Part shown: in pieces, positions 33,802 through 48,319 of the stretch
How positions within the stretch are numbered: the stretch's first letter is position 1
How the letters are laid out: each line of letters opens with the position of its first letter
Assembly (NCBI GenBank): GCA_020348905.1
Contig: CP070756.1
Span: 2,982,074-3,042,035, forward strand
Source: Candidatus Zixiibacteriota bacterium
GTDB lineage: Bacteria; Zixibacteria; MSB-5A5; GN15; FEB-12
Length of the DNA stretch: 59,962 nucleotides
Direction of reading: 5' to 3'
The notes under the pieces: model-generated
Told to the model about the DNA's origin: nothing
The model's database searches: none
The model's input: only the letters and a program-made list of their open reading frames with translations
Program-made: the position numbers and the translations under genes

Positions 33802-34193
33802 AATTGGTCTCCTAATGAGCGCAGTAATGTTCGTTCTTTCCCTGGTCGAATCCCACCTTCCAGCCGGGCCCTAATGATGCCGCATGCGACATCGAACGCG
33901 ATTCTTCGGGAAGCGCAACCCCTCTTGATAAAACTAGAGTTGAAAGAAAGGCCCGAACTCTAAAAGGTACTTCCTTTTTCCACGGCTTGCTGGCGATGGT
34001 TGACAACCAGAGCCTATTATAACAACAGCGTGGCCCCCCCAGAAAGTTCCCGGCTGATCCAAATCTAAGAATCAACCTTTGGTATTTTTTCTTCTGCTCC
34101 ACTGCCAGTTGTTGACAGTGGACTGCCGTAAGATAAGAACAGAAGGAATACGTTCAAACCGGTTTGCCGGATTACGGCCCAAAGGTGCGGAAT

Positions 34194-34553
34194 ATGCCAG
34201 GAGACGTCAGCAAGGAGATGTGTAAGGCCGCGTACCGGGCGGAGCAGGTACCCGGAGAAGTAGTTATATATGCCAGCGGGGTGCACCAGCGGCCCGGGTA
34301 CAGAGTATCGTTCGAGCGGGTCGGGGTGACCATCTTTCCACCCCAGTTTTCATTTATGCATGAGCTTCCTGAGAAGACAACGGTCCGTTCGCAGTCACCG
34401 TTTACCCACCAGGTATCGTTTGAGACGGACAGGAAAGTCGATTCAGTAGTAATATATGACGCCGATGGCAGACACGTGATCAAAGTCAGCCAATCCTCCG
34501 GCAAAGGTGCTGAGCCCGAATCCGTCCATTGCGGACAGACCGACGAGCGCTAA
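34194..34553 (+). CDS. Hypothetical small protein
   Basis: The ORF spans 34164-34553 with an ATG at 34194. The composition is beta-rich and plausible (VSFETDRKVDSVVIYDADGRHVIKV). An antisense ORF of similar length also exists, so the strand is uncertain. Confidence 0.3.
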   Translation: MPGDVSKEMCKAAYRAEQVPGEVVIYASGVHQRPGYRVSFERVGVTIFPPQFSFMHELPEKTTVRSQSPFTHQVSFETDRKVDSVVIYDADGRHVIKVSQSSGKGAEPESVHCGQTDER

Positions 34554-34603: not shown

Positions 34604-35218
34604 TCAGATAATCGAGACCTTCTTTATCCTGAGAAAATCTGCGGATTCCGTCGTCGAACCGTCGGCATCAACCAACTGCCAGTGTTTCTTGAAACGAAGC
34701 GCCGGGTTGTCAATCTTTACATCGCCCACGTCGGAATTGTCCGAGTCTACCGAGATACGAACTTTCTTATCGCATCTTATGGCGGCACTTATCAACAGCG
34801 ATGAAATCAGATAAGAGCAGTTGGTCTGATCGGAGAGGCTATCAAGCTGATGCTCGTATGCATCGACAACCTCTTCCAGCGGCATCGGCTGCCGCACCAG
34901 AAGCTTATTGACCAATGCTTCCGCATCCTGCTTGTACTCGTCGTTAAGCCCCGCGAGGAGCCTCCTGAGACCAACGAGAATCAAAATCGTCTCTTCGAGA
35001 TTGAACTGGTCAATGCGCGTAACGGCCTGACGGTCCAGCCGATAGGCCCGCGAGTCACGGTCAAAGTAGACCGGAAAGTTGGCTTCCGAGATGTCCCTGA
35101 GATACCGGTAAGCCGTTCTCTCGGGAATACCGCAAGCATTCTTGATTGTGTCGAGTGTCACCTGCTGTCGGTGGGTCAGCAGGTTAATCAGACTTAAAAC
35201 CCTCTTAAGCTTTCCCAT
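34604..35218 (-). CDS. HTH plus WYL-domain transcriptional regulator (YafY-like, short)
   Basis: The N-terminal HTH_11-like segment is RVLSLINLLTHRQQVTLDTIKNACGIPERTAYRYLRDI. The C-terminal WYL-like core is KKVRISV...IDNPALRFKKHWQLV...DFLRIKKV. Confidence 0.65.
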   Translation of the reverse strand: MGKLKRVLSLINLLTHRQQVTLDTIKNACGIPERTAYRYLRDISEANFPVYFDRDSRAYRLDRQAVTRIDQFNLEETILILVGLRRLLAGLNDEYKQDAEALVNKLLVRQPMPLEEVVDAYEHQLDSLSDQTNCSYLISSLLISAAIRCDKKVRISVDSDNSDVGDVKIDNPALRFKKHWQLVDADGSTTESADFLRIKKVSII

Positions 35219-35233
35219 GGCAACCTTTACTTC

Positions 35234-35260
35234 GACGGGGGGCGGTCATCGCCCCCCGTC
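35234..35260 (-). promoter_or_regulatory. Perfect GC-rich hairpin between the small peptide gene and the WYL regulator gene
   Basis: The arms are gacggggggcg (35234-35244) and cgccccccgtc (35250-35260), giving an 11-bp perfect stem and a 5-nt loop. No U-run follows on the minus strand. Confidence 0.6.
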
Positions 35261-35278: not shown

Positions 35279-35536
35279 TTACAGAATTGTGCCAACTACG
35301 ATCTCCAGATACATTCGTAGCGTGAGGCTTTTCTCCGGCATTGGCTCTGCGTCCGGTACCGGCGTGGACTCCGTCGGATTGCTGGCGTCCAACGTGGAAT
35401 CGCTCGGTGGGTGAGGGGGGTCACCTCCACCATCAGCAGCAGCTGCCGACGGCAGTGCTGCGACGCCCAGCATGGCAAGCACCAGGGCGACAAGACAGTA
35501 GCAAATGAGGACTGTCAGGATAGGCTTTCTGTTCAA
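35279..35536 (-). CDS. Small exported Pro/Ser/Asp-rich protein (85 aa)
   Basis: The TTG start is preceded by a strong SD (GGAGGT, 6-nt spacer). It has an N-terminal signal/TM segment (ILTVLICYCLVALVLAMLGVAALPSAAAA), a disordered DGGGDPPHPPSD...PVPDAEPMPE stretch and a hydrophobic C-terminus. Confidence 0.55.
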   Translation of the reverse strand: MNRKPILTVLICYCLVALVLAMLGVAALPSAAAADGGGDPPHPPSDSTLDASNPTESTPVPDAEPMPEKSLTLRMYLEIVVGTIL

Positions 35537-35678
35537 CTGTTTACCTCCATCACGAGTTTCGATCTCAGCCCCGTTGATGGAGACTCAACAAAGCCTGTGC
35601 CAATCGGAAAGACCATCGACCCATCAGCGCAAGCATAAATACGACAATGACATATTGCCTGTGAACGGTGATCAGCCT

Positions 35679-35695: not shown

Positions 35696-35799
35696 CTTTT
35701 CTCGCCGACTGGGCACGAACAGTGGCAAGTTGATTTATTTATATAGGGTTAACGGGAACTGCACAGTGCCGCCGAGCGGCAAAGTGGCAAATTTTGGGG

Positions 35800-38700
35800 C
35801 TAAATGGATTTGGAGATCTGGTATTTCTTGATTTTTCTTCTAAGCGTGGAAAGAGGTATGTTCAGATCGGCTGACGCCCTCGATTGATTCCACTTATGCT
35901 TGATGAGGACCTTTCTTATCTGCTCTTTTTCCACCAACTGTAACGACTCGCGGTGGTTGCCGTCAAGTTTGGCACTGTACTGAATTTCGGTTGGCAAACC
36001 CGAGACATCGATTCTTTCACCCGGGTAAACTATGCAGCATCGCTCTATAAGGTTTTTCAGTTCTCTGACGTTGCCCGGCCAGTCATATGACGCCAGAGCC
36101 TGCGTCGCCGCAGTAGAAAATCTCGGTTGCCGACCGCCGCGCGAAAAGAGCGTCACAAAGTGATCAATCAACAGCATAATATCACTTCTTCTTTCCCGTA
36201 ACGGGGGGATTTCTATTGTGACCGTATTGATTCGGTACAATAGGTCCTGTCTGAATTTGCCTTCGCGTGTCATCGCTGCGAGATCTTTGTTGGTCGCGTA
36301 AACGAAGCGGATATCGGTATAGGTAGTTTTGTTACTTCCCACTCTTTCAAATTGCTGATACTCAACGGTGCGGAGTACCTTAGCTTGAACCTCGAGAGGC
36401 ATATCGCCGATCTCGTCGAGCAGCAGGGTGCCTCCGTCGGCCGCTGCGAACTTGCCCTCGCGCTCCTTGACATCGGTGGCCACGTTAGCAGCAACGCCGA
36501 ACAACTCGCTTTCTATCAAAGTTCCCGCAATCGCCGCACAGTTGAGCTTGATCAGCGGCTTACCCGAACGAAGGCTGAGGTCATGAATCATCTCGCATAG
36601 AATCTCTTTTCCGGTGCCACTCTCCCCCTGTATCAGGACGGGCGCGTTGGTTCGCGCTATTTCAGGAAGTTTGCCAAACAGTTCCAGCATCGAATCATCC
36701 TTGGTCACAAAGGCCTGCCGATTCCCCGATCGGCCGACATCCTCGACCAGTTGTTGATTGATGATACTCACGTCACGGTAGCTCTGAATGGTAGATACCA
36801 TTACCGCCATTAGATTGGCGATAGTAGTGACGTAGACGATATCACTACTGTCGAATAGAGCCGGGATGGTATGGTGGTCAAGATAAAGAACGCCCAGAAC
36901 GGTGTTTTCGATAGTGACCGGAATGCAGATTACTGAGAGAATATTGTGGGCGACTATACTCTTGTAGTTCCTCGTGCGCTTGTCCGCCAGGGCATTGTCG
37001 ACTATCAATGGATCAACATTACGGGCTACCTCCAGCGGGATGGTTGAACTAAAATCGGCTATATCCTCTAGGCTGCTCTCGTCGCATTCGACAAAGGACG
37101 AAACCCTGAGCTTGTTTGACTGCTCACTTCTTAGCAGAAGCACCCCTCGTTCAGCACCCGTCTGCTCAACGGCAAATTCCACCAGCCGTTTAAGGGATTG
37201 CCGATAGTCCTTGATGTTTTTTAGAATTTCCGAGATGCCGTGCACCGAGTCGATCAATTCGGTCAAATCCGAAGTCTCATCGGACAGGTCTTGAATCTGT
37301 AATGCGAGTTCTTTCGACATTCGCTCATTCTTCATACCGGTCGCCAGCCGGAGCGCCTGTCCAAGGAACTTCCGGGCCAGTTTCTCCTGCGATTGCCTCA
37401 AATACTGTTCAGCAATTCTCCGGCACACGATCACGGCAAGAAATACGTTCCCACTGGTTTCAAGAATTCGGAAGATTGTCTTTAAATCTCTGACTGCAGC
37501 AAGATCATCATCAGGCGGAGTAGTCGTCTGTAGAACGAGCAGCGATAAGGCCCTGAAAAAGGGGGCTCGCGACTGCTGCCCGACTTCAAGTAGCGGCCGA
37601 GCCTTTTCAAGGCACTCAGCTGCCCGATGATTGTCGGTGTTGATCAGGAAGTGGAATAAAGCCAGGCCGGCAAAGTAATAACCGCGGCAATTGATCAGTA
37701 TTTCCATCAACTCAGCGAGTCTCTGCACCGCAGTATCGTCGCCGCCATTGTATAGCCGGTTAAGGGTATCGATCAGGTGCAGCTCCGCTAGAGAAGCGGT
37801 ATCATGCTGGTCGGATAATGCCGATTCCCCGGCGCCAAGATGGAGCTCACATACGGATTGTTTGCCCTGATACATAGCCACCTCGGCGAGGCCATGGTAG
37901 ATTTTTGCGGCCGATCTGGAGCGAACTGTAGAATCGATAACATCCAGTCCCTTGTGCAACGATAGAGCACTTGCCTCAAAATCACCACGGTTACACTTGA
38001 TATAGCCTTCGCCTATATAATAGAGGACAATCGCATTTCGGTCGGGTTCACCCGCCCTGCTGGCCAGTGATCGCTGTAGCCAGTATTCGGCCTTGTTATG
38101 ATCACAAAGTCGTGAGTAGGCGTTAGCAAGGCTGTTCGCTATAATGCCCTCCAAATAACGGTCAACGGGATCGTCAATCTGCTTCAGTGCCATCTTGCCG
38201 TACCGGATGACATTACTGTGTTGGGCTAATTCTTGATATAATATGGCCAGGCCCACAATACTGCTGATCGATTTGGACAGAAGGCCATTAACCCTGGCCA
38301 CTTCAAAACTGCGCATCAGGTGCTTCTCCGACTCGCCAAAAAGACCTCTTCGCCAGTAAACGATGCCGCGAGCATAATGAACTTTTATTTCGACTTCGTG
38401 GAGATGGGCTGCTCCGGCCCGCATGATAGTGGAGTCCAGCAATTCCTCGGCTTCATCATGCCGCCCCTCTATCGACGCCAGCCAGGCCCGGGTTCGCTCG
38501 AACATCAACTCGTGGTGAAGGTCTCCGACCGATTTCGCCTGAGCAATTCCGCGCTCGACAAGCTGATTGGCCTCGTCCATAAGCCCAAGGTCTGTTGCAA
38601 CCGATACCAGATCGTACATGGCTCCGAGGTCCACTTGCGAATGCATCTCATTAAGCTCGACCAGGCTGCGGTAATACTCCGCCGCAGATGCTAATCGGCC

Positions 38701-39981
38701 CAGGGCTTGCGAAAGATACCCCAGCTCCTTGAGTGCCTTAGCGCGTAAATCCATCCTTTGGTCCGGGGTTTTCTCCAACTCATCCAAGGCCGCCCGGAAT
38801 GCAAGGAAAGACCTCAGGTACTTGCCGGTCTCCTTATGCACGCTACCGCCACCAATCAGCTTTTCAACCACCTCGGCGCCAGCCAGCGGTTGGGCTTTAT
38901 GCTGGGGTTCAAGTATGAGGTCAATCTCACCGAACAATTCACCAAGGTCTCGATCGGAGACCTGGAGGTGCCAGTAATCGCCGTGGCGCGAAACCGACGC
39001 ACGCTGAACCACAGATTTAAACAGACGGATAGCTGCCGCTCTACTCTTTGAATACACGGCCCCCAGATCGTCCAGAAGTTCATCGGACAATCCCAGTATC
39101 CTATTGGCCCTTATTAACGATTTTTTCAACGTGTCGGTATCCGGTGAAGCTAACGATCTTTGATCACGGAAACTGCTCAGCACCATCGACGATAACAGGT
39201 CTTTGTTGGCCGAACCCAGTACTGCAGAATCGAATAATCCGGCATCTGCGGTGGCGTTCAACAGGGCATACGGACGGTTCAACGGATAACTGTCGGTCAA
39301 AAGCTCAGCCAGCTTCTCTACACCGTCAGCTTTGACCTTCAGGCTGTCATCGAACTCAGAAGGGTGGAGCCTGTAATACTCAACACAATCCTTGAAAGCA
39401 ATACCAAGCGAGTAGTTGTCCGACTGTACCAGAACGGCGTCGTTAGACAGAATCTCCGGAGCTATATGGCGGGGAGTGCCGAAAATCTTGGCGTTCGGAG
39501 AGGAACCAACCGCAGTCAGAAAATCCAGGTCAACCAGAACGAGCCTGTGAGACGCGGCCGAGGTGCCGATCATGAAATTGCTGAGCTTCAAATCGCAATG
39601 GACCAGCTCTCTGAGGTGAACCAGGTCTACCAGCAGGCACAACTGAACGAGGACACTATCAAAGTTCTGCCAGAACAGTGACGGCGTGAGCTGCTGCCAT
39701 CTCTGACTGTCCAGATAAGGGTACTCAAAGAATAGCTGCCCTTTTTCATGGTACTTGTTTTTGGCAGTGATTATCCTGTCACTATTGAGAAGTCGCTGGC
39801 AACGGTATGAATTATTGAGAATCGAGGATACCGTCTGAGCGTCGATGGGTGACTCCGGATTAGGTGTCTTGACAAAGGACTTTGTTCCCGAGGCGGGACA
39901 ACTGGCTACCCACGACTGACTTAAGTCGTTCTGCGACAGTAAAGTTTCTAAACTCAATCTGGCCCCTTCAGAAAAAGACAT
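35800..39981 (-). CDS. Multidomain regulator: Ser/Thr-kinase-like, TPR/helical repeats, GAF, sigma-54-interaction-type AAA+, Fis-type HTH
   Basis: The protein is 1393 aa. The kinase-like domain has HCDLKLSNF, DLDF, GTPRHIAPE. The long helical region contains AEYYRSL-type TPRs. The GAF segment reads GAERGVLLL...LGVLYLDH. The AAA+ domain has VLIQGESGTGKE, GGTLLLDEIGDM, FRQDLLYRIN, and the HTH has QSRASADLNIPLSTLRRKIKKY. Confidence 0.85.
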   Translation of the reverse strand: MSFSEGARLSLETLLSQNDLSQSWVASCPASGTKSFVKTPNPESPIDAQTVSSILNNSYRCQRLLNSDRIITAKNKYHEKGQLFFEYPYLDSQRWQQLTPSLFWQNFDSVLVQLCLLVDLVHLRELVHCDLKLSNFMIGTSAASHRLVLVDLDFLTAVGSSPNAKIFGTPRHIAPEILSNDAVLVQSDNYSLGIAFKDCVEYYRLHPSEFDDSLKVKADGVEKLAELLTDSYPLNRPYALLNATADAGLFDSAVLGSANKDLLSSMVLSSFRDQRSLASPDTDTLKKSLIRANRILGLSDELLDDLGAVYSKSRAAAIRLFKSVVQRASVSRHGDYWHLQVSDRDLGELFGEIDLILEPQHKAQPLAGAEVVEKLIGGGSVHKETGKYLRSFLAFRAALDELEKTPDQRMDLRAKALKELGYLSQALGRLASAAEYYRSLVELNEMHSQVDLGAMYDLVSVATDLGLMDEANQLVERGIAQAKSVGDLHHELMFERTRAWLASIEGRHDEAEELLDSTIMRAGAAHLHEVEIKVHYARGIVYWRRGLFGESEKHLMRSFEVARVNGLLSKSISSIVGLAILYQELAQHSNVIRYGKMALKQIDDPVDRYLEGIIANSLANAYSRLCDHNKAEYWLQRSLASRAGEPDRNAIVLYYIGEGYIKCNRGDFEASALSLHKGLDVIDSTVRSRSAAKIYHGLAEVAMYQGKQSVCELHLGAGESALSDQHDTASLAELHLIDTLNRLYNGGDDTAVQRLAELMEILINCRGYYFAGLALFHFLINTDNHRAAECLEKARPLLEVGQQSRAPFFRALSLLVLQTTTPPDDDLAAVRDLKTIFRILETSGNVFLAVIVCRRIAEQYLRQSQEKLARKFLGQALRLATGMKNERMSKELALQIQDLSDETSDLTELIDSVHGISEILKNIKDYRQSLKRLVEFAVEQTGAERGVLLLRSEQSNKLRVSSFVECDESSLEDIADFSSTIPLEVARNVDPLIVDNALADKRTRNYKSIVAHNILSVICIPVTIENTVLGVLYLDHHTIPALFDSSDIVYVTTIANLMAVMVSTIQSYRDVSIINQQLVEDVGRSGNRQAFVTKDDSMLELFGKLPEIARTNAPVLIQGESGTGKEILCEMIHDLSLRSGKPLIKLNCAAIAGTLIESELFGVAANVATDVKEREGKFAAADGGTLLLDEIGDMPLEVQAKVLRTVEYQQFERVGSNKTTYTDIRFVYATNKDLAAMTREGKFRQDLLYRINTVTIEIPPLRERRSDIMLLIDHFVTLFSRGGRQPRFSTAATQALASYDWPGNVRELKNLIERCCIVYPGERIDVSGLPTEIQYSAKLDGNHRESLQLVEKEQIRKVLIKHKWNQSRASADLNIPLSTLRRKIKKYQISKSI

Positions 39982-40329
39982 AGCCGGTCCATATCTTCAA
40001 CTGGTTCTTGTCAGGTGGATGGCATTAGCGGCGCGTCGCTGACCATTCCCACAAACTCAAGATAACATTACCTGCCACTTTTTCAAGACATTTGGCAAAT
40101 TTTATTGCCTTGCACTGCCAGAAACTGTCAGCGTCAGCAAGTATATTTTGCTCAGTCCGTACAGCACCGATTAAAAAGCGGGGAGGATTTTAGGGGAGGG
40201 CAACCCTGTGGTGGGGGTGAACCGGGTAGTCCGGGGAGATGCTTTGGACTATCTGACGAAGTTCACCTCCACCTTTTTTTACTGCCTGGAATGTTGGAAA
40301 CTGTTTCGCCGACGTAGCTGGCGAACCTC

Positions 40330-45658: not shown

Positions 45659-48319
45659 ATGGCGGCAGACGAATCAAACGACGATCAGACTCAGTCCTTC
45701 GTCGCTCTGGCAAAAGACACCGCGGTTTCACACTACACGATTATCGACAAGATTGGGTCAGGGGGGATGGGTGACGTGTACCTGGCCTGGGACACCGAGC
45801 TTGACCGCACCGTTGCCCTCAAATTCCTGCACCTCAATCTCTGCCGGGCCGAGGATTGTCGCAAGCGCTTCAAGCGCGAGGCTCAGGCCGCGGCAAGACT
45901 GGACCACGCCAACATTGTCACCGTCCATGAAGTCGGCGAGTTCCAGGGCCGACCGTATTTCGTAATGCAGCATGTTGAAGGGCACTCGCTGCGGCATTTG
46001 ATTAAACAGCGAGAACTCTCCCTTGAGCAAACCATCGACCTGGCGATCCAGATTTGCGAAGGACTTCGCGAAGCGCATGAGCTTGGCATCATTCATCGAG
46101 ACATCAAATCCTCCAATATCCTGCTCGACGGCCGCGGCAACCCGAAGTTGGTGGACTTTGGCCTGGCCACTATTGCCGGCACCGACAAACTGACCAAGCC
46201 GGGCTCTACGATGGGGACGGTTGGGTATATGTCGCCGGAACAGGCCGAGGGCAAACAAGTTGACCAGCGGTCCGACCTGTTTTCCCTTGGCGTCGTCCTG
46301 TATGAGATGATCACCGGGCGGCGTCCCTTCGACCGTGATAATGAAATCGCCACCAGCAAAGCCATCGTAACCGATACGGCCGAGCCACTGGCGCGGTACA
46401 AATCCGGAATCCCGGCCGAGCTTCAGCACTCGATCGAAAAGGCGCTGCAGAAGGATCCGGACACGCGCTATCAAAGTGTTAACGAATTTCTGGCCGACCT
46501 GCGCTTGATTAAGCGGCAGATGGATTCAGGCATAACCGGGCCATCAGCCGAGCAGCTGTCGCCGCGCAGACCAGGGCGCCGCGGGGCGGCCGTCGCAGTG
46601 CTCTTCTTAACGGCCCTGGCCGTTATGTTCTGGCTAAACCCGACCATCCGGCAAGCAGCCTTGGAGATGTTGGGATTCGACGTGGATCGCACAGCCCGGC
46701 ATCTGGCCGTGTTGCCCTTTACAAACCTCGGTGAGACCGATGAAGGCCGCGCGCTATGCGATGGCCTGTTGGAAACGCTAACCAGCAAACTCACCGAAAT
46801 TGAAAAATTCCAATCCGCGCTCTGGGTCGTGCCGGCCAGCGAGGTGCGCCAGCGGAAAGTCAACAGTGCCAGCCAGGCCCGTCGGACCTTTGGTGCTACT
46901 CTGGCTGTCACCGGCAGCCTTCAGCAGATTGACGGGTACATCCGCATGACCCTGAACCTGGTCGATACGAAAACACAACGCCAACTCCGGTCGGTGGTAA
47001 TCGATGATTCGGCTGCCGACGTTTCATCACTCCAGGATTCAACCGTGCTTATGCTGGCGGATATGCTTCAGGTACAGCTCCAGCCGCAGCAACGGCAGAG
47101 CCTGATGGCCGGAGGCACCGCCGAACGTGAAGCGTACTTGCTTTACGTTAAGGCGCGTGGACACCTGGCCCGGTTTGAAAAAATAGAGAATATCGACACG
47201 GCCATTGCGGCATTCAAGCAAGCGCTTGACATCGACTCAGCCTATTCCCTGGCTTATGCCGGACTGGGGGAAGCTTACTGTCGCAAGTATGAAGTCCTCG
47301 CCGAACCGGATTACGAGGAATTGGCCATATACAACAGCCGGCGAGCCATCGAACTCAATGATGAGGCTGCTCCTGTTTACGCCACCCTGGGCGTCATTCA
47401 TCATGGCCGGGGCAGGTATGAACAGGCCGTTTCGCAATTCGAGCAGGCCCTGAGACTCGATTCAGCCAGCCGCAGCTCCTATCGCGGACTGGCTGCCGCC
47501 TACACGGCCCTTAATAAGAATCCCGAAGCCGAATCCACGTACAAGGAAATCATCAAGTTGTGGCCCGACCACTGGTCAGGCTACGTAGACCTGGGGCTGT
47601 TCTACCAGCGGCGCGGTCGCGTCGACGACGCACTCGCCCAGGTGGACCGCGCCACCCGCCTTGAACCGGAGGGTTATGCTGCCTGGAATAACGTGGGCGT
47701 TCTATACTATCGGTTGGGGCGATATGATGACGCCCGCAAAGCCTGGGAACGGTCCTGTGAGATTGAACTGACCTTCGGAACCTGCTCCAACCTGGGCATG
47801 CTTTACCATACGGAGAAACGTTATCAGGAGGCCGCCGAGGCCTACCGGAAGGCGCTGGTACTGAACGACCAGGATTACCGGCTCTGGATAAACCTTGCCT
47901 CGTCCCTGTATCAGGTACCGGGAGCTCGCGAGGAAGCCGTTACCGCCTACCGGGAGGCCATCGTAAGAGCCGAACGACAATTGACAATAAATCCTCGAGG
48001 TACCGAACTGTTGTCCAGCCTGGCCGATTGCTATGCCGTGCTTGGTGACCGTAACAGGGCCATATCGTACATTCAGCAGGCGTTATCTCAAGCCCCCGAC
48101 GATGTAGAGGTCATGAGCACCGCCTGCCTCGTTTACGAGCTCCTCGGCGAGCGCGATACCGCCCTGATGTGGATAGCGGAGGCTGTCAACCGCGGACACC
48201 TGCCTGACGACATCGAATCGCTGCCGGAGATGCAGGGTCTGACCGGCGATCCGAGGTATCAGGATCTTATCAGCACCGGCAGCGTTGAATCCCGGGGGGA
48301 TACGACTTCACGTCGGTAG
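45659..48319 (+). CDS. Ser/Thr protein kinase with TM segment, periplasmic domain and C-terminal TPR repeats
   Basis: Kinase motifs are GSGGMGDVY, VALK, HRDIKSSN, DFGLA, GYMSPE. The TM helix is AAVAVLFLTALAVMFWL. Multiple TPRs follow (AYAGLGEAY, VYATLGVIHH, AWNNVGVLYY ...). Confidence 0.9.
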   Translation: MAADESNDDQTQSFVALAKDTAVSHYTIIDKIGSGGMGDVYLAWDTELDRTVALKFLHLNLCRAEDCRKRFKREAQAAARLDHANIVTVHEVGEFQGRPYFVMQHVEGHSLRHLIKQRELSLEQTIDLAIQICEGLREAHELGIIHRDIKSSNILLDGRGNPKLVDFGLATIAGTDKLTKPGSTMGTVGYMSPEQAEGKQVDQRSDLFSLGVVLYEMITGRRPFDRDNEIATSKAIVTDTAEPLARYKSGIPAELQHSIEKALQKDPDTRYQSVNEFLADLRLIKRQMDSGITGPSAEQLSPRRPGRRGAAVAVLFLTALAVMFWLNPTIRQAALEMLGFDVDRTARHLAVLPFTNLGETDEGRALCDGLLETLTSKLTEIEKFQSALWVVPASEVRQRKVNSASQARRTFGATLAVTGSLQQIDGYIRMTLNLVDTKTQRQLRSVVIDDSAADVSSLQDSTVLMLADMLQVQLQPQQRQSLMAGGTAEREAYLLYVKARGHLARFEKIENIDTAIAAFKQALDIDSAYSLAYAGLGEAYCRKYEVLAEPDYEELAIYNSRRAIELNDEAAPVYATLGVIHHGRGRYEQAVSQFEQALRLDSASRSSYRGLAAAYTALNKNPEAESTYKEIIKLWPDHWSGYVDLGLFYQRRGRVDDALAQVDRATRLEPEGYAAWNNVGVLYYRLGRYDDARKAWERSCEIELTFGTCSNLGMLYHTEKRYQEAAEAYRKALVLNDQDYRLWINLASSLYQVPGAREEAVTAYREAIVRAERQLTINPRGTELLSSLADCYAVLGDRNRAISYIQQALSQAPDDVEVMSTACLVYELLGERDTALMWIAEAVNRGHLPDDIESLPEMQGLTGDPRYQDLISTGSVESRGDTTSRR

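Follow-up and report, generated by a model that had tools for sequence, protein, structure and literature searches.

The window analysed here is the whole 59,962-nucleotide (nt) stretch of Candidatus Zixiibacteriota contig CP070756.1, and this account concerns one of its minus-strand genes, at 35800-39981, together with the short genes that lie behind it. The gene encodes a regulator of 1393 amino acids (aa). By its fold, motifs and context the regulator is an enhancer-binding protein (EBP), which lacks the GAFTGA motif used to define sigma-54 activators and carries an unusual kinase-like/TPR input. Its stop codon is followed by enhancer-like repeats, a conserved sigma-54-type promoter, a leader hairpin and the genes for a small, apparently secreted peptide and a short WYL regulator. 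Judging from the sequences compared below, we think that the regulator probably activates this promoter (35602-35587) through sigma-54 by way of a loop that naturally lacks phenylalanine, and that this residue, although held to be "essential", is probably dispensable in nature.

Regulator architecture and the L1 loop

The regulator gene and the parts of its product are as follows.

35800-39981, minus strand: regulator gene, 1393 aa (kinase-like, TPR, GAF, AAA+ and helix-turn-helix (HTH) parts), a single open reading frame (ORF)
39187-39954, minus strand: kinase-like domain, aa ~10-265 (Pfam Pkinase, AlphaFold2 model, Foldseek)
37282-38784, minus strand: TPR/MalT-like helical repeats, aa ~400-900
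36796-37203, minus strand: GAF domain, aa 927-1062 (Pfam GAF_2, 46.2 bits; GAF, 37.9 bits)
35962-36708, minus strand: sigma-54-type AAA+ module with its lid, aa 1092-1340 (Pfam)
36469-36498, minus strand: L1 loop, aa 1162-1171, reading G-V-A-A-N-V-A-T-D-V against the canonical G-H-E-K-G-A-F-T-G-A
35821-35943, minus strand: Fis-type HTH, HTH_8, aa 1347-1387 (Pfam, 41.5 bits)

The preliminary description had read five domains in one polypeptide, and Pfam, which we used for the domain calls on the 1393-aa protein, places all of them (kinase, TPR, GAF, Sigma54_activat and HTH_8) in a frame that stays open over 1393 codons without internal stops. The Pkinase profile matches aa 59-265 with 55.9 bits against a cut-off of 31.7, over profile positions 49-242 only. 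TPR_12 and TPR_MalT cover aa 402-650, and the matches in the repeat region comprise three stretches of TPR_12, TPR_MalT at aa 402-544 and TPR_2. In the output half, Sigma54_activat (PF00158) spans aa 1092-1257 with 186.5 bits and AAA_lid_14 spans aa 1262-1340. A STAND NTPase between the kinase-like and TPR parts was also considered and was ruled out, there being neither a P-loop nor a Pfam match. When the C-terminal 480 aa were compared with the NCBIfam models, the best alignment was NifA, and the NifA-like GAF-AAA+ model TIGR01817 reached 310 bits over aa 912-1329, which is under its trusted cut-off. All NCBIfam equivalog models score the regulator below their cut-offs, indicating that it is an EBP-type protein outside any named orthologue group.

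The relatives of the AAA+ module in the PDB are NtrC1, ZraR, FleQ and PspF, with E-values down to 1e-72. In the phmmer alignment ELFGVAANVATD.V pairs with ELFGYEKGAFTGAV of NtrC1 and ZraR, indicating that GAFTGA is replaced in register by NVATDV; the same alignment revealed no shifted GAFTGA in the regulator, and the loss noticed in the preliminary description is therefore genuine. We then counted the loop residues that follow ELFG in 167 full-length family members, and the consensus was G-[VI]-A-[KR]-[NG]-[VA]-A-T-G-V. The first position is V or I in 164/167, the second A in 112/167, the third K or R in 126/167, the fourth N (70/167) or G (47/167) and the fifth V (91/167) or A (48/167). At the sixth, which is the Phe position, 152/167 members have A, 10 have F or Y and 5 have V, while the seventh is T (161/167) or S (6), the eighth G (130/167) or D (24) and the ninth V (161/167). 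Compared with G-H-E-K-G-A-F-T-G-A, the loop thus has an equal length and keeps Thr or Ser in 167/167 members, with Phe to Ala as the norm. The AAA+ residues around it are invariant in 42 diverse members, namely Walker A GESGTGK, the Walker B pair D1189-E1190, N1231, R1250 and R1306, indicating that the ATPase is under selection. From this pattern of residues, the loop is under purifying selection and is not decaying.

Other EBP modules provide a background for this variant. The 17 other EBP modules of the same genome have GAFTGA, GSFTGA, GAFTDA or GSFSGA loops, and the GAFTDA forms indicate that the G-to-D change at motif position 5 is common in this lineage. As a control we used 80 ordinary EBPs of other phyla, which a scan of genome contigs had picked up by the generic GESGTGKE pattern; almost all of their loops are of the GAFTGA type, including those of kinase-fused EBPs of KSB1 and Calditrichaceae. 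Within the family, the 1386-aa member P0202 has the canonical loop HAKGAFTDAR (GAFTDA), and nine further members keep F or Y (e.g. NAFTGV) and represent natural intermediates next to the xVATGV members. The window's genome also contains, outside the window at C1:1915589-1916509, a second EBP-type AAA+ module with the degenerate L1 loop ELFGEGTDRSASDV, which is a candidate for a truly sigma-54-independent homologue.

A search of 5.8 billion proteins gave 775 matches, more than 100 of which run the full length of ~1390 aa and show an identical set of domains; the sources of the matches are labelled Zixibacteria, GN15 and a few Acidobacteriota metagenome-assembled genomes, and the full-length homologues are 32-76% identical to the regulator. 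When the AAA+ domain was searched exhaustively with phmmer against 1.84 billion 50%-identity representatives, ~1380-aa members dominated the best 150 matches, indicating that the family spans more than 100 clusters at 50% identity. A phylogenetic profile, as proposed in the preliminary description, was obtained by a six-frame search with the kinase-like N-terminus alone, and the family was found in 65/151 phylum genomes (43%) and 40/87 genera, mostly as a single copy per genome with open frames of 1377-1457 aa. The window's genome, one 3.27-Mb contig, holds exactly one copy of the architecture. It also encodes an intact rpoN, the presence of which had been left to be checked; the product is full length (474 aa) with a normal region I and RpoN box. 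Since rpoN is present in 151/151 sampled phylum genomes, the phyletic pattern cannot discriminate between explanations. The genome is rated 80.65% complete with 3.4% contamination although it is a single contig, and its relatives are rated 91-100%. In the literature on the regulator family or xVATGV loops we found nothing beyond a remark on DVUA0100, which is discussed below, and the regulator family and its module appear unstudied.

The spacer downstream and the regulator's own promoter

The non-coding features on both sides of the regulator gene are as follows.

35766-35790, minus strand: candidate enhancer (upstream activating sequence, UAS) I, TTGCCAC plus the palindrome TGCC-N7-GGCA, just past the stop codon
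35690-35728, minus strand: candidate enhancer (UAS) II, TTGCCAC-N25-GTGGCAA with 17-nt imperfect inverted arms (repeat search)
35587-35602, minus strand: conserved sigma-54-type promoter TGGCAC-AGGCT-TTGT-T with GG-N10-GT, the full element being TGGCACAGGCTTTGTT
35544-35583, minus strand: leader hairpin, in which an anti-Shine-Dalgarno (anti-SD) segment at 35583-35579 pairs with the Shine-Dalgarno (SD) sequence GGAGG at 35548-35544 (folding)
40059-40086, minus strand: sigma-70-like promoter of the regulator gene, TTGAAA-16-TATCTT with an upstream TG (promoter scan)

We compared 44 loci, which are the four orthologous loci (the window and L002-L004) and 40 further ones from phylum genomes, and every position in the 500 nt after the regulator's stop codon was given a score by a simple weighting of the -24/-12 motif. 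The top-scoring site lies 186-214 nt after the stop codon in 34/44 loci, where ~2.6 would be expected (binomial P ~1e-33, computed for 35/44), and in most of the others a weaker site occupies this position. The four orthologous spacers share an invariant TGGCA[CT]-N5-TTGTTG in which only the 5-nt spacer varies, and in the window ~50 nt separate the element from the GGAGG and the small ORF's TTG start, which follow it. Over the 44 loci the base matrix is GG 44, C 38, A 42, five variable positions, T 38, T 41 and G 44, and the resulting [TC]GGCA[CT]-N5-TTG matches 9/10 of the most conserved sigma-54 consensus positions with exact spacing. At the place of the consensus -12 C, 24 loci have A, 17 have T and 3 have C. 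TTGT is likewise found in E. coli pspA. Two sigma-54-type sites with A or T for the -12 C, TGGCACGCCGTTTGAT at C1:1129464 and CGGCACGGTATTTGTA at C1:3053990 (both minus strand, outside the window), directly adjoin EBP genes with canonical GAFTGA loops, indicating that the A/T base is not exclusive to the regulator. Based on these TTGA/TTGT sites, the idea that the base is specific to the regulator's promoter was upheld only in part, and a relaxed -12 base may be common in the phylum.

The preliminary description had set the loss of GAFTGA against a different -24/-12 element, TGGCAAATGGGATGCAT at 35695-35679. The tension between the loop and a downstream sigma-54-type promoter is real and holds family-wide; the element pointed to, however, is not the conserved one. 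It is identical in L002, retains GG-N10-GC in L003 and falls out of register (N9) in L004, so that it is conserved only in the closest relatives, and it overlaps the repeated GTGGCAA motif. We therefore rejected it as the main promoter, while it might still act as a lineage-specific second one.

The repeats surround this rejected site, and candidate UAS II includes its -24-like TGGCA. The motif AAAGTGGCAAAT/ATTTGCCACTTT occurs three times in the window's spacer, and the TGCC/GGCA core of UAS I is invariant in the four orthologous loci. Across the 44 spacers TTGCC[AG]/[CT]GGCAA hexamers are the most enriched words, with TGGCAA/TTGCCA found in 24/44 spacers compared with 3.6 in shuffles (~6-fold). 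In the family spacers the repeat words cluster at -190 to -160 and at -120 to -100 from the -24 element. The range from -190 to -100 is the usual distance of EBP enhancers, and by their placement the repeats are candidate enhancer-like elements. An Rfam search of the leader and spacer gave no credible match.

The transcript leader is predicted to fold over its own SD sequence. When minimum-free-energy folds were calculated for 39 family leaders (the window and the equivalent place in L002-L004 and L115-L154), the SD was paired in 37, and in 31 its pairing partner came from the 15 nt directly behind the -12 G, with a mean z-score of -2.5. The stems of 8-14 bp differ in sequence between loci, with arms of CTCCATCA/TGATGGAG in the window, CCTCCCGCGGG/CCCGCGTGGAGG in L004 and CTGAGTGTGAA/TTCACACTCAG in L141, and pairing that is kept across such differing sequences indicates that the pairing is selected. 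Among 400 control leaders of the same genome, 45% had a paired SD, and in 21% its partner fell in the first 15 nt (Fisher P = 4e-13). The 5' arm sits between the -12 element and the canonical start (~35576). Two readings of this place are possible, namely that transcription starts unusually near the -12 element, or that the anti-SD is absent from sigma-54-initiated transcripts and present in read-through ones; the hairpin may tie translation to the promoter that gave rise to the transcript.

Upstream of the regulator gene, TTGAAAAA and TGTTAT are invariant in the four orthologous loci. The -35 of the sigma-70-like promoter is flanked by a TTGCCA (40098-40093) and GTGGCA (40078-40073) pair, which is conserved only in the window and L002 and hints at autoregulation of the regulator gene. 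About 25 nt upstream of the same -35, the block CTGACAGTTTCTGGCAGTGCA at 40111-40131 (minus strand) is invariant in the four orthologous loci, and its equivalent in L003 and L004 forms GCACTG-N11-CAGTGC; this block may be an operator for some other factor.

The kinase-like domain and the downstream genes

Aa 1-335 were modelled with AlphaFold2 from an alignment of 42 sequences, and the model had a predicted local distance difference test (pLDDT) value of 92 and a predicted TM-score of 0.90. When this model was compared with the PDB using Foldseek, ~2000 matches were obtained and the best 50 were all protein kinases, the closest folds being CaMKII, DAPK and PknB with probability 1.0 and TM-scores up to 0.69. 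Together with the Pkinase match, this places a kinase fold at the N-terminus. The residues K38 (beta3), H128, D130, N135, D151, P175-E176, D188, G193 and R236 are invariant in the 42 homologues, and the motifs HCD (H128-D130), DLDF (D151-F154) and APE (A174-E176) are invariant or almost so. In the catalytic loop HCDLKLSN, K132 and N135 are each invariant in one of two alignments and near-invariant in the other. The catalytic-loop Arg is changed to Cys (non-RD) and DFG to DLD, while the alphaF Asp is kept. No GxGxxG was found, since the beta1-beta2 turn reads LSQNDLSQSW and the family consensus LLSENxLxQSW contains no Gly. Helix C (aa 48-62) has no conserved acidic residue across the alignment, and S58 and Q62 are near-invariant there instead. 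These data bear out the earlier view of an atypical kinase-like domain that retains HCD, DLDF, APE and the Lys and has lost the Gly loop. As every phosphotransfer residue is kept, the sequence argues for nucleotide binding and possibly catalysis, while the missing Gly loop and the apparent lack of a Lys-Glu pair point to an atypical mechanism or to a switch of the pseudokinase kind.

An internal contrast to this Gly-loop-less domain lies 5.7 kb from the regulator, where the window encodes an 886-aa canonical Hanks kinase at 45659-48319 (plus strand) with GSGGMG, VALK, HRDIK and DFG. The long C-terminal extension of this kinase appears TPR-like by eye only.

Two genes follow the regulator in the conserved module.

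35279-35536, minus strand: small ORF, 85 aa, TTG start (same place in 41/44 loci, 73-92 aa)
34604-35218, minus strand: short winged HTH (wHTH)-WYL regulator, 204 aa, third gene of the module

The orthologous contigs (76%, 51% and 52% protein identity) have in common the gene order methyltransferase, regulator, small ORF, ~205-aa protein and FG-GAP/type IX secretion (T9SS) protein. Linkage to the methyltransferase is limited to close relatives, and 43/44 loci keep the regulator, the small ORF and the WYL gene side by side. The small ORF product has a signal peptide, an AxA|DGG..PP stretch, D[TS]T motifs, an acidic Pro/Thr-rich middle and a hydrophobic C-terminus of 10-15 residues, and no Pfam family matches it. 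We also considered a PEP-CTERM/sortase-type signal on this protein and rejected it, as no basic tail follows the hydrophobic end and Pfam gave no match.

The ~204-aa gene lies directly downstream in 43/44 loci as judged by tblastn. Pfam gave the 204-aa protein only weak HTH_11 and HTH_PafC matches and no WYL match. Its AlphaFold2 model (pLDDT 85.5) was matched by Foldseek to DriD, PafBC, BrxR and CapW, which make up the best 24 matches with probability 1.0, and the protein is without the usual C-terminal WCX extension. The short WYL gene (E <= 1e-12) is present in 61/65 genomes with the regulator compared with 4/86 without it (Fisher P = 3e-32), and the four regulator-bearing genomes that do not have it include ones whose regulator genes are cut by contig ends (G114 and G128). 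The tblastn survey of the 44 loci found no second EBP gene as part of the conserved module, and the interval from the regulator to the small ORF showed no intrinsic terminator on the minus strand. The next interval, up to the WYL gene, contains at 35234-35260 a perfect G/C hairpin of 11 bp, GACGGGGGGCG / CGCCCCCCGTC, that lacks a U tract, and this hairpin may be an attenuator or a processing/stability element within the presumed operon. Just beyond the WYL gene, a 129-aa ORF at 34164-34553 (plus strand) has counterparts of 57-67% identity in L003, L004 and L115 and belongs to no Pfam family.

Proposed mechanism, rival explanations and related systems

Based on these observations, we take the regulator to be a cytoplasmic one-component EBP of a Zixibacteria-wide family, in which three input modules (the kinase-like domain, the ~500-aa TPR region and GAF) would gate a catalytically intact AAA+ ring. 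The Fis-type HTH would bind the TTGCC(A/G)/(C/T)GGCAA repeats in the 200-bp spacer that follows the regulator's own stop codon, and the repeat-bound ring would activate the sigma-54 holoenzyme at TGGCAC-N5-TTGT (35602-35587). Such activation would turn on the gene for the ~85-aa secreted peptide and probably, on the same transcript, the short HTH-WYL gene. The xVATGV sequence, here NVATDV, would then be a functional variant of GAFTGA that keeps the Thr, has no aromatic residue and operates on promoters with A or T at -12. We infer DNA binding at the repeats, sigma-54 dependence and the direction of regulation from the sequence. The anatomy of the unit, with a regulator gene, enhancer repeats, a -24/-12 promoter and a target operon, is that of an EBP unit and speaks for a working sigma-54 activator.

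Several points weigh against this mechanism. Changes of the central Phe and Thr of GAFTGA in PspF, NifA and NtrC mostly abolish activation (PMC3162934, PMC7175178), and by the standard of these proteins a loop with Phe changed to Ala should be inactive. The -12 consensus C is absent in ~41/44 loci. When nGGCAn-N5-TTGN sites were counted over the genome, relying on our own rough gene calls, the promoter-like sites had the -12 C in 26/56 cases compared with 18.5% in coding DNA (P = 7e-6), indicating that ordinary TTGC promoters exist in this genome; the difference from the 3/44 of the family promoters has P = 1e-5. The 5' arm of the leader hairpin begins 4-10 nt after the -12 element, upstream of the canonical sigma-54 start, and this position fits a transcript beginning further upstream. 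In principle the promoter could be served by any one of the genome's 17 canonical EBPs, and the 44 loci are phylogenetically related, so that the counts given above overstate their independence. Finally, the sequence of the regulator locus was matched only in metagenomic DNA runs and not in transcript data.

Part of this evidence would also be accommodated if the regulator acted independently of sigma-54, as a repressor, an anti-activator or a sigma-70-type activator at the TTGCC/GGCAA repeats in the manner of TyrR, HupR, VpsR and DhaR, with the -24/-12 element served by one of the canonical EBPs or blocked by the regulator itself. We regard this as unlikely, though it has several points in its favour. 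The Phe/Thr changes that abolish activation and the presence of the 17 canonical EBPs fit it, EBP homologues that have lost the motif work with sigma-70 (PMC3162934), and the TTGCCA/GTGGCA pair around the regulator's own -35 fits repression, as for PexR at a sigmaA promoter (PMC12754779). The named independent homologues, however, carry deletions or degenerate loops (PMC3162934), whereas the present family retains the loop length, the Thr/Ser in 167/167 members and a fixed sequence over more than 100 clusters at 50% identity; for this reason, and given the sigma-54-type promoter nearby, the analogy with sigma-54-independent TyrR and HupR drawn in the preliminary description is not supported. 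Plain DNA binding would have no need for the intact Walker motifs and AAA+ residues, the promoter accompanies the regulator at a fixed distance in nearly all loci, and the conserved module includes no second EBP gene. It is still less probable that the GGCA-N6-TTG element is no promoter at all and is instead an operator or a leader-RNA motif just 5' of the hairpin that sequesters the SD. In that case transcription reading through from the regulator gene would serve the two downstream genes, the small ORF and the WYL gene, and their control would be translational. The place of the hairpin 5' arm upstream of the canonical start, the lack of an intrinsic terminator in the interval before the small ORF, the missing -12 C and the resemblance of the -24 half GGCA to the GGCAA half-site of the repeats would all suit such an arrangement. 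Against it stand the 9/10 consensus positions with exact spacing beside a gene of the EBP family, and the TTGA/TTGT sites that are also found beside canonical-loop EBP genes (C1:1129464 and C1:3053990). In addition, the element is fixed in sequence while the hairpin is variable but paired, which argues for recognition of the DNA by a protein and not for an RNA structure. Lastly, an assembly-induced fusion of genes, or a decaying pseudogene in which the loop change is damage, is suggested by the unusual length and the loop change alone and has practically no chance of being correct. The preliminary description had raised the fusion as a concern; frames of ~1380-1450 aa with the same domain order in 65/151 genomes and on independent metagenome contigs of various sources, the absence of internal stops, and the 167-member census in which the variant loop is the family norm already refute both forms of this idea.

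If the regulator does work through sigma-54, its parts might be combined further into a self-contained circuit of new design. We consider the variant loop, the anti-SD overlap and a peptide feedback, taken jointly, to be quite a doubtful combination. In such a circuit the Phe-less xVATGV loop would be a second natural way to engage region I of sigma-54 and would be matched to promoters without the -12 C, a weaker key for a weaker lock. The anti-SD between -12 and +1 would keep read-through transcripts from being translated, and translation would be open only to transcripts initiated by sigma-54, the start of which would lie inside the 5' arm. The secreted ~85-aa pro-peptide could then feed back on the TPR sensor of the regulator, giving an RRNPP-like loop in a diderm phylum.

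Among known systems, the nearest precedent for the loop is DVUA0100 of D. vulgaris Hildenborough, a one-component EBP of plasmid type III secretion operons with the L1 loop GVATGV (Kazakov et al. 2015, PMC4641369). The regulon prediction for this protein, which was computational only, concluded that the substitutions do not prevent sigma-54 activation (PMC4641369). Its GVATGV is identical to the loop of 22 family members and close to the NVATDV of the window, and it likewise adjoins predicted sigma-54 promoters. In contrast, the Nitratidesulfovibrio protein, which we compared by its description, has a long N-terminal domain for which no kinase-TPR-GAF chain is reported, and its targets are those of type III secretion.

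The core of GAF, sigma-54 AAA+ and Fis-type HTH is common to the regulator and the group III (GAF-type) EBPs NifA, NorR, FhlA and M. xanthus PexR. In PexR the GAF domain gates the AAA+ domain (PMC12754779), and by analogy with NifA, NorR and PexR the GAF of the regulator is expected to do so as well. A further likeness to PexR would be a dual role of the regulator, should it also act at its own sigma-70-like promoter. Unlike the group III proteins, the regulator devotes a further 900 aa to kinase-like and TPR input, has NVATDV in place of GAFTGA, faces a target promoter with A or T at -12 and scores under the equivalog cut-offs. TyrR, DhaR, HupR, R. capsulatus NtrC and VpsR have an EBP-type AAA+ domain without canonical GAFTGA (PMC3162934). 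Their loops are deleted or degenerate and they act at sigma-70 promoters, whereas the regulator keeps the loop length, the Thr and a consensus; unlike the TyrR/HupR/VpsR-type homologues, it also has a conserved sigma-54-type promoter beside its gene.

On the input side, the modelled bilobal fold is common to the kinase-like domain and the Hanks-type Ser/Thr kinases (PknB, with CaMKII and DAPK as the nearest folds), and both have the beta3 Lys, the Asp, Lys and Asn of HCDLKxxN, the Mg-binding Asp (DLD), APE and the alphaF Asp. Unlike these kinases, the regulator is without the Gly-rich loop, a conserved helix-C Glu, RD or DFG. In the RRNPP-type pairs of Firmicutes (PlcR-PapR, NprR-NprX and Rap-Phr), the gene for a cytoplasmic TPR regulator is followed by that for an exported pro-peptide, and the TPR receptor binds the re-imported peptide processed from it. 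The likeness to our module is one of gene arrangement and of the signal peptide of the small ORF: a TPR regulator gene is followed by a small exported pro-peptide gene that is apparently controlled by the regulator. The module differs from RRNPP systems in its AAA+/sigma-54 output in place of an N-terminal HTH or a phosphatase, in its diderm host and in having no peptide importer.

GAFTGA, and its Phe above all, serves as the defining test for sigma-54 activators, and genome surveys discard homologues that do not have it (PMC3162934). Here, a large conserved family in which Phe is changed to Ala still travels with a sigma-54-type promoter and enhancer-like repeats. The analysis also defines a new three-gene unit of an uncultured phylum, consisting of a megaregulator, a secreted peptide and a short WYL regulator, and this unit shows an unusual overlap of promoter and anti-SD. 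If activation through sigma-54 is true for this family, the accepted rule on the aromatic residue of the pore loop would not be general, and motif-based filters would under-count sigma-54 regulons. The pairing of xVATGV with an A/T -12 base would then offer a natural system in which to ask how firmly an AAA+ ring has to grip region I and the -12 fork.

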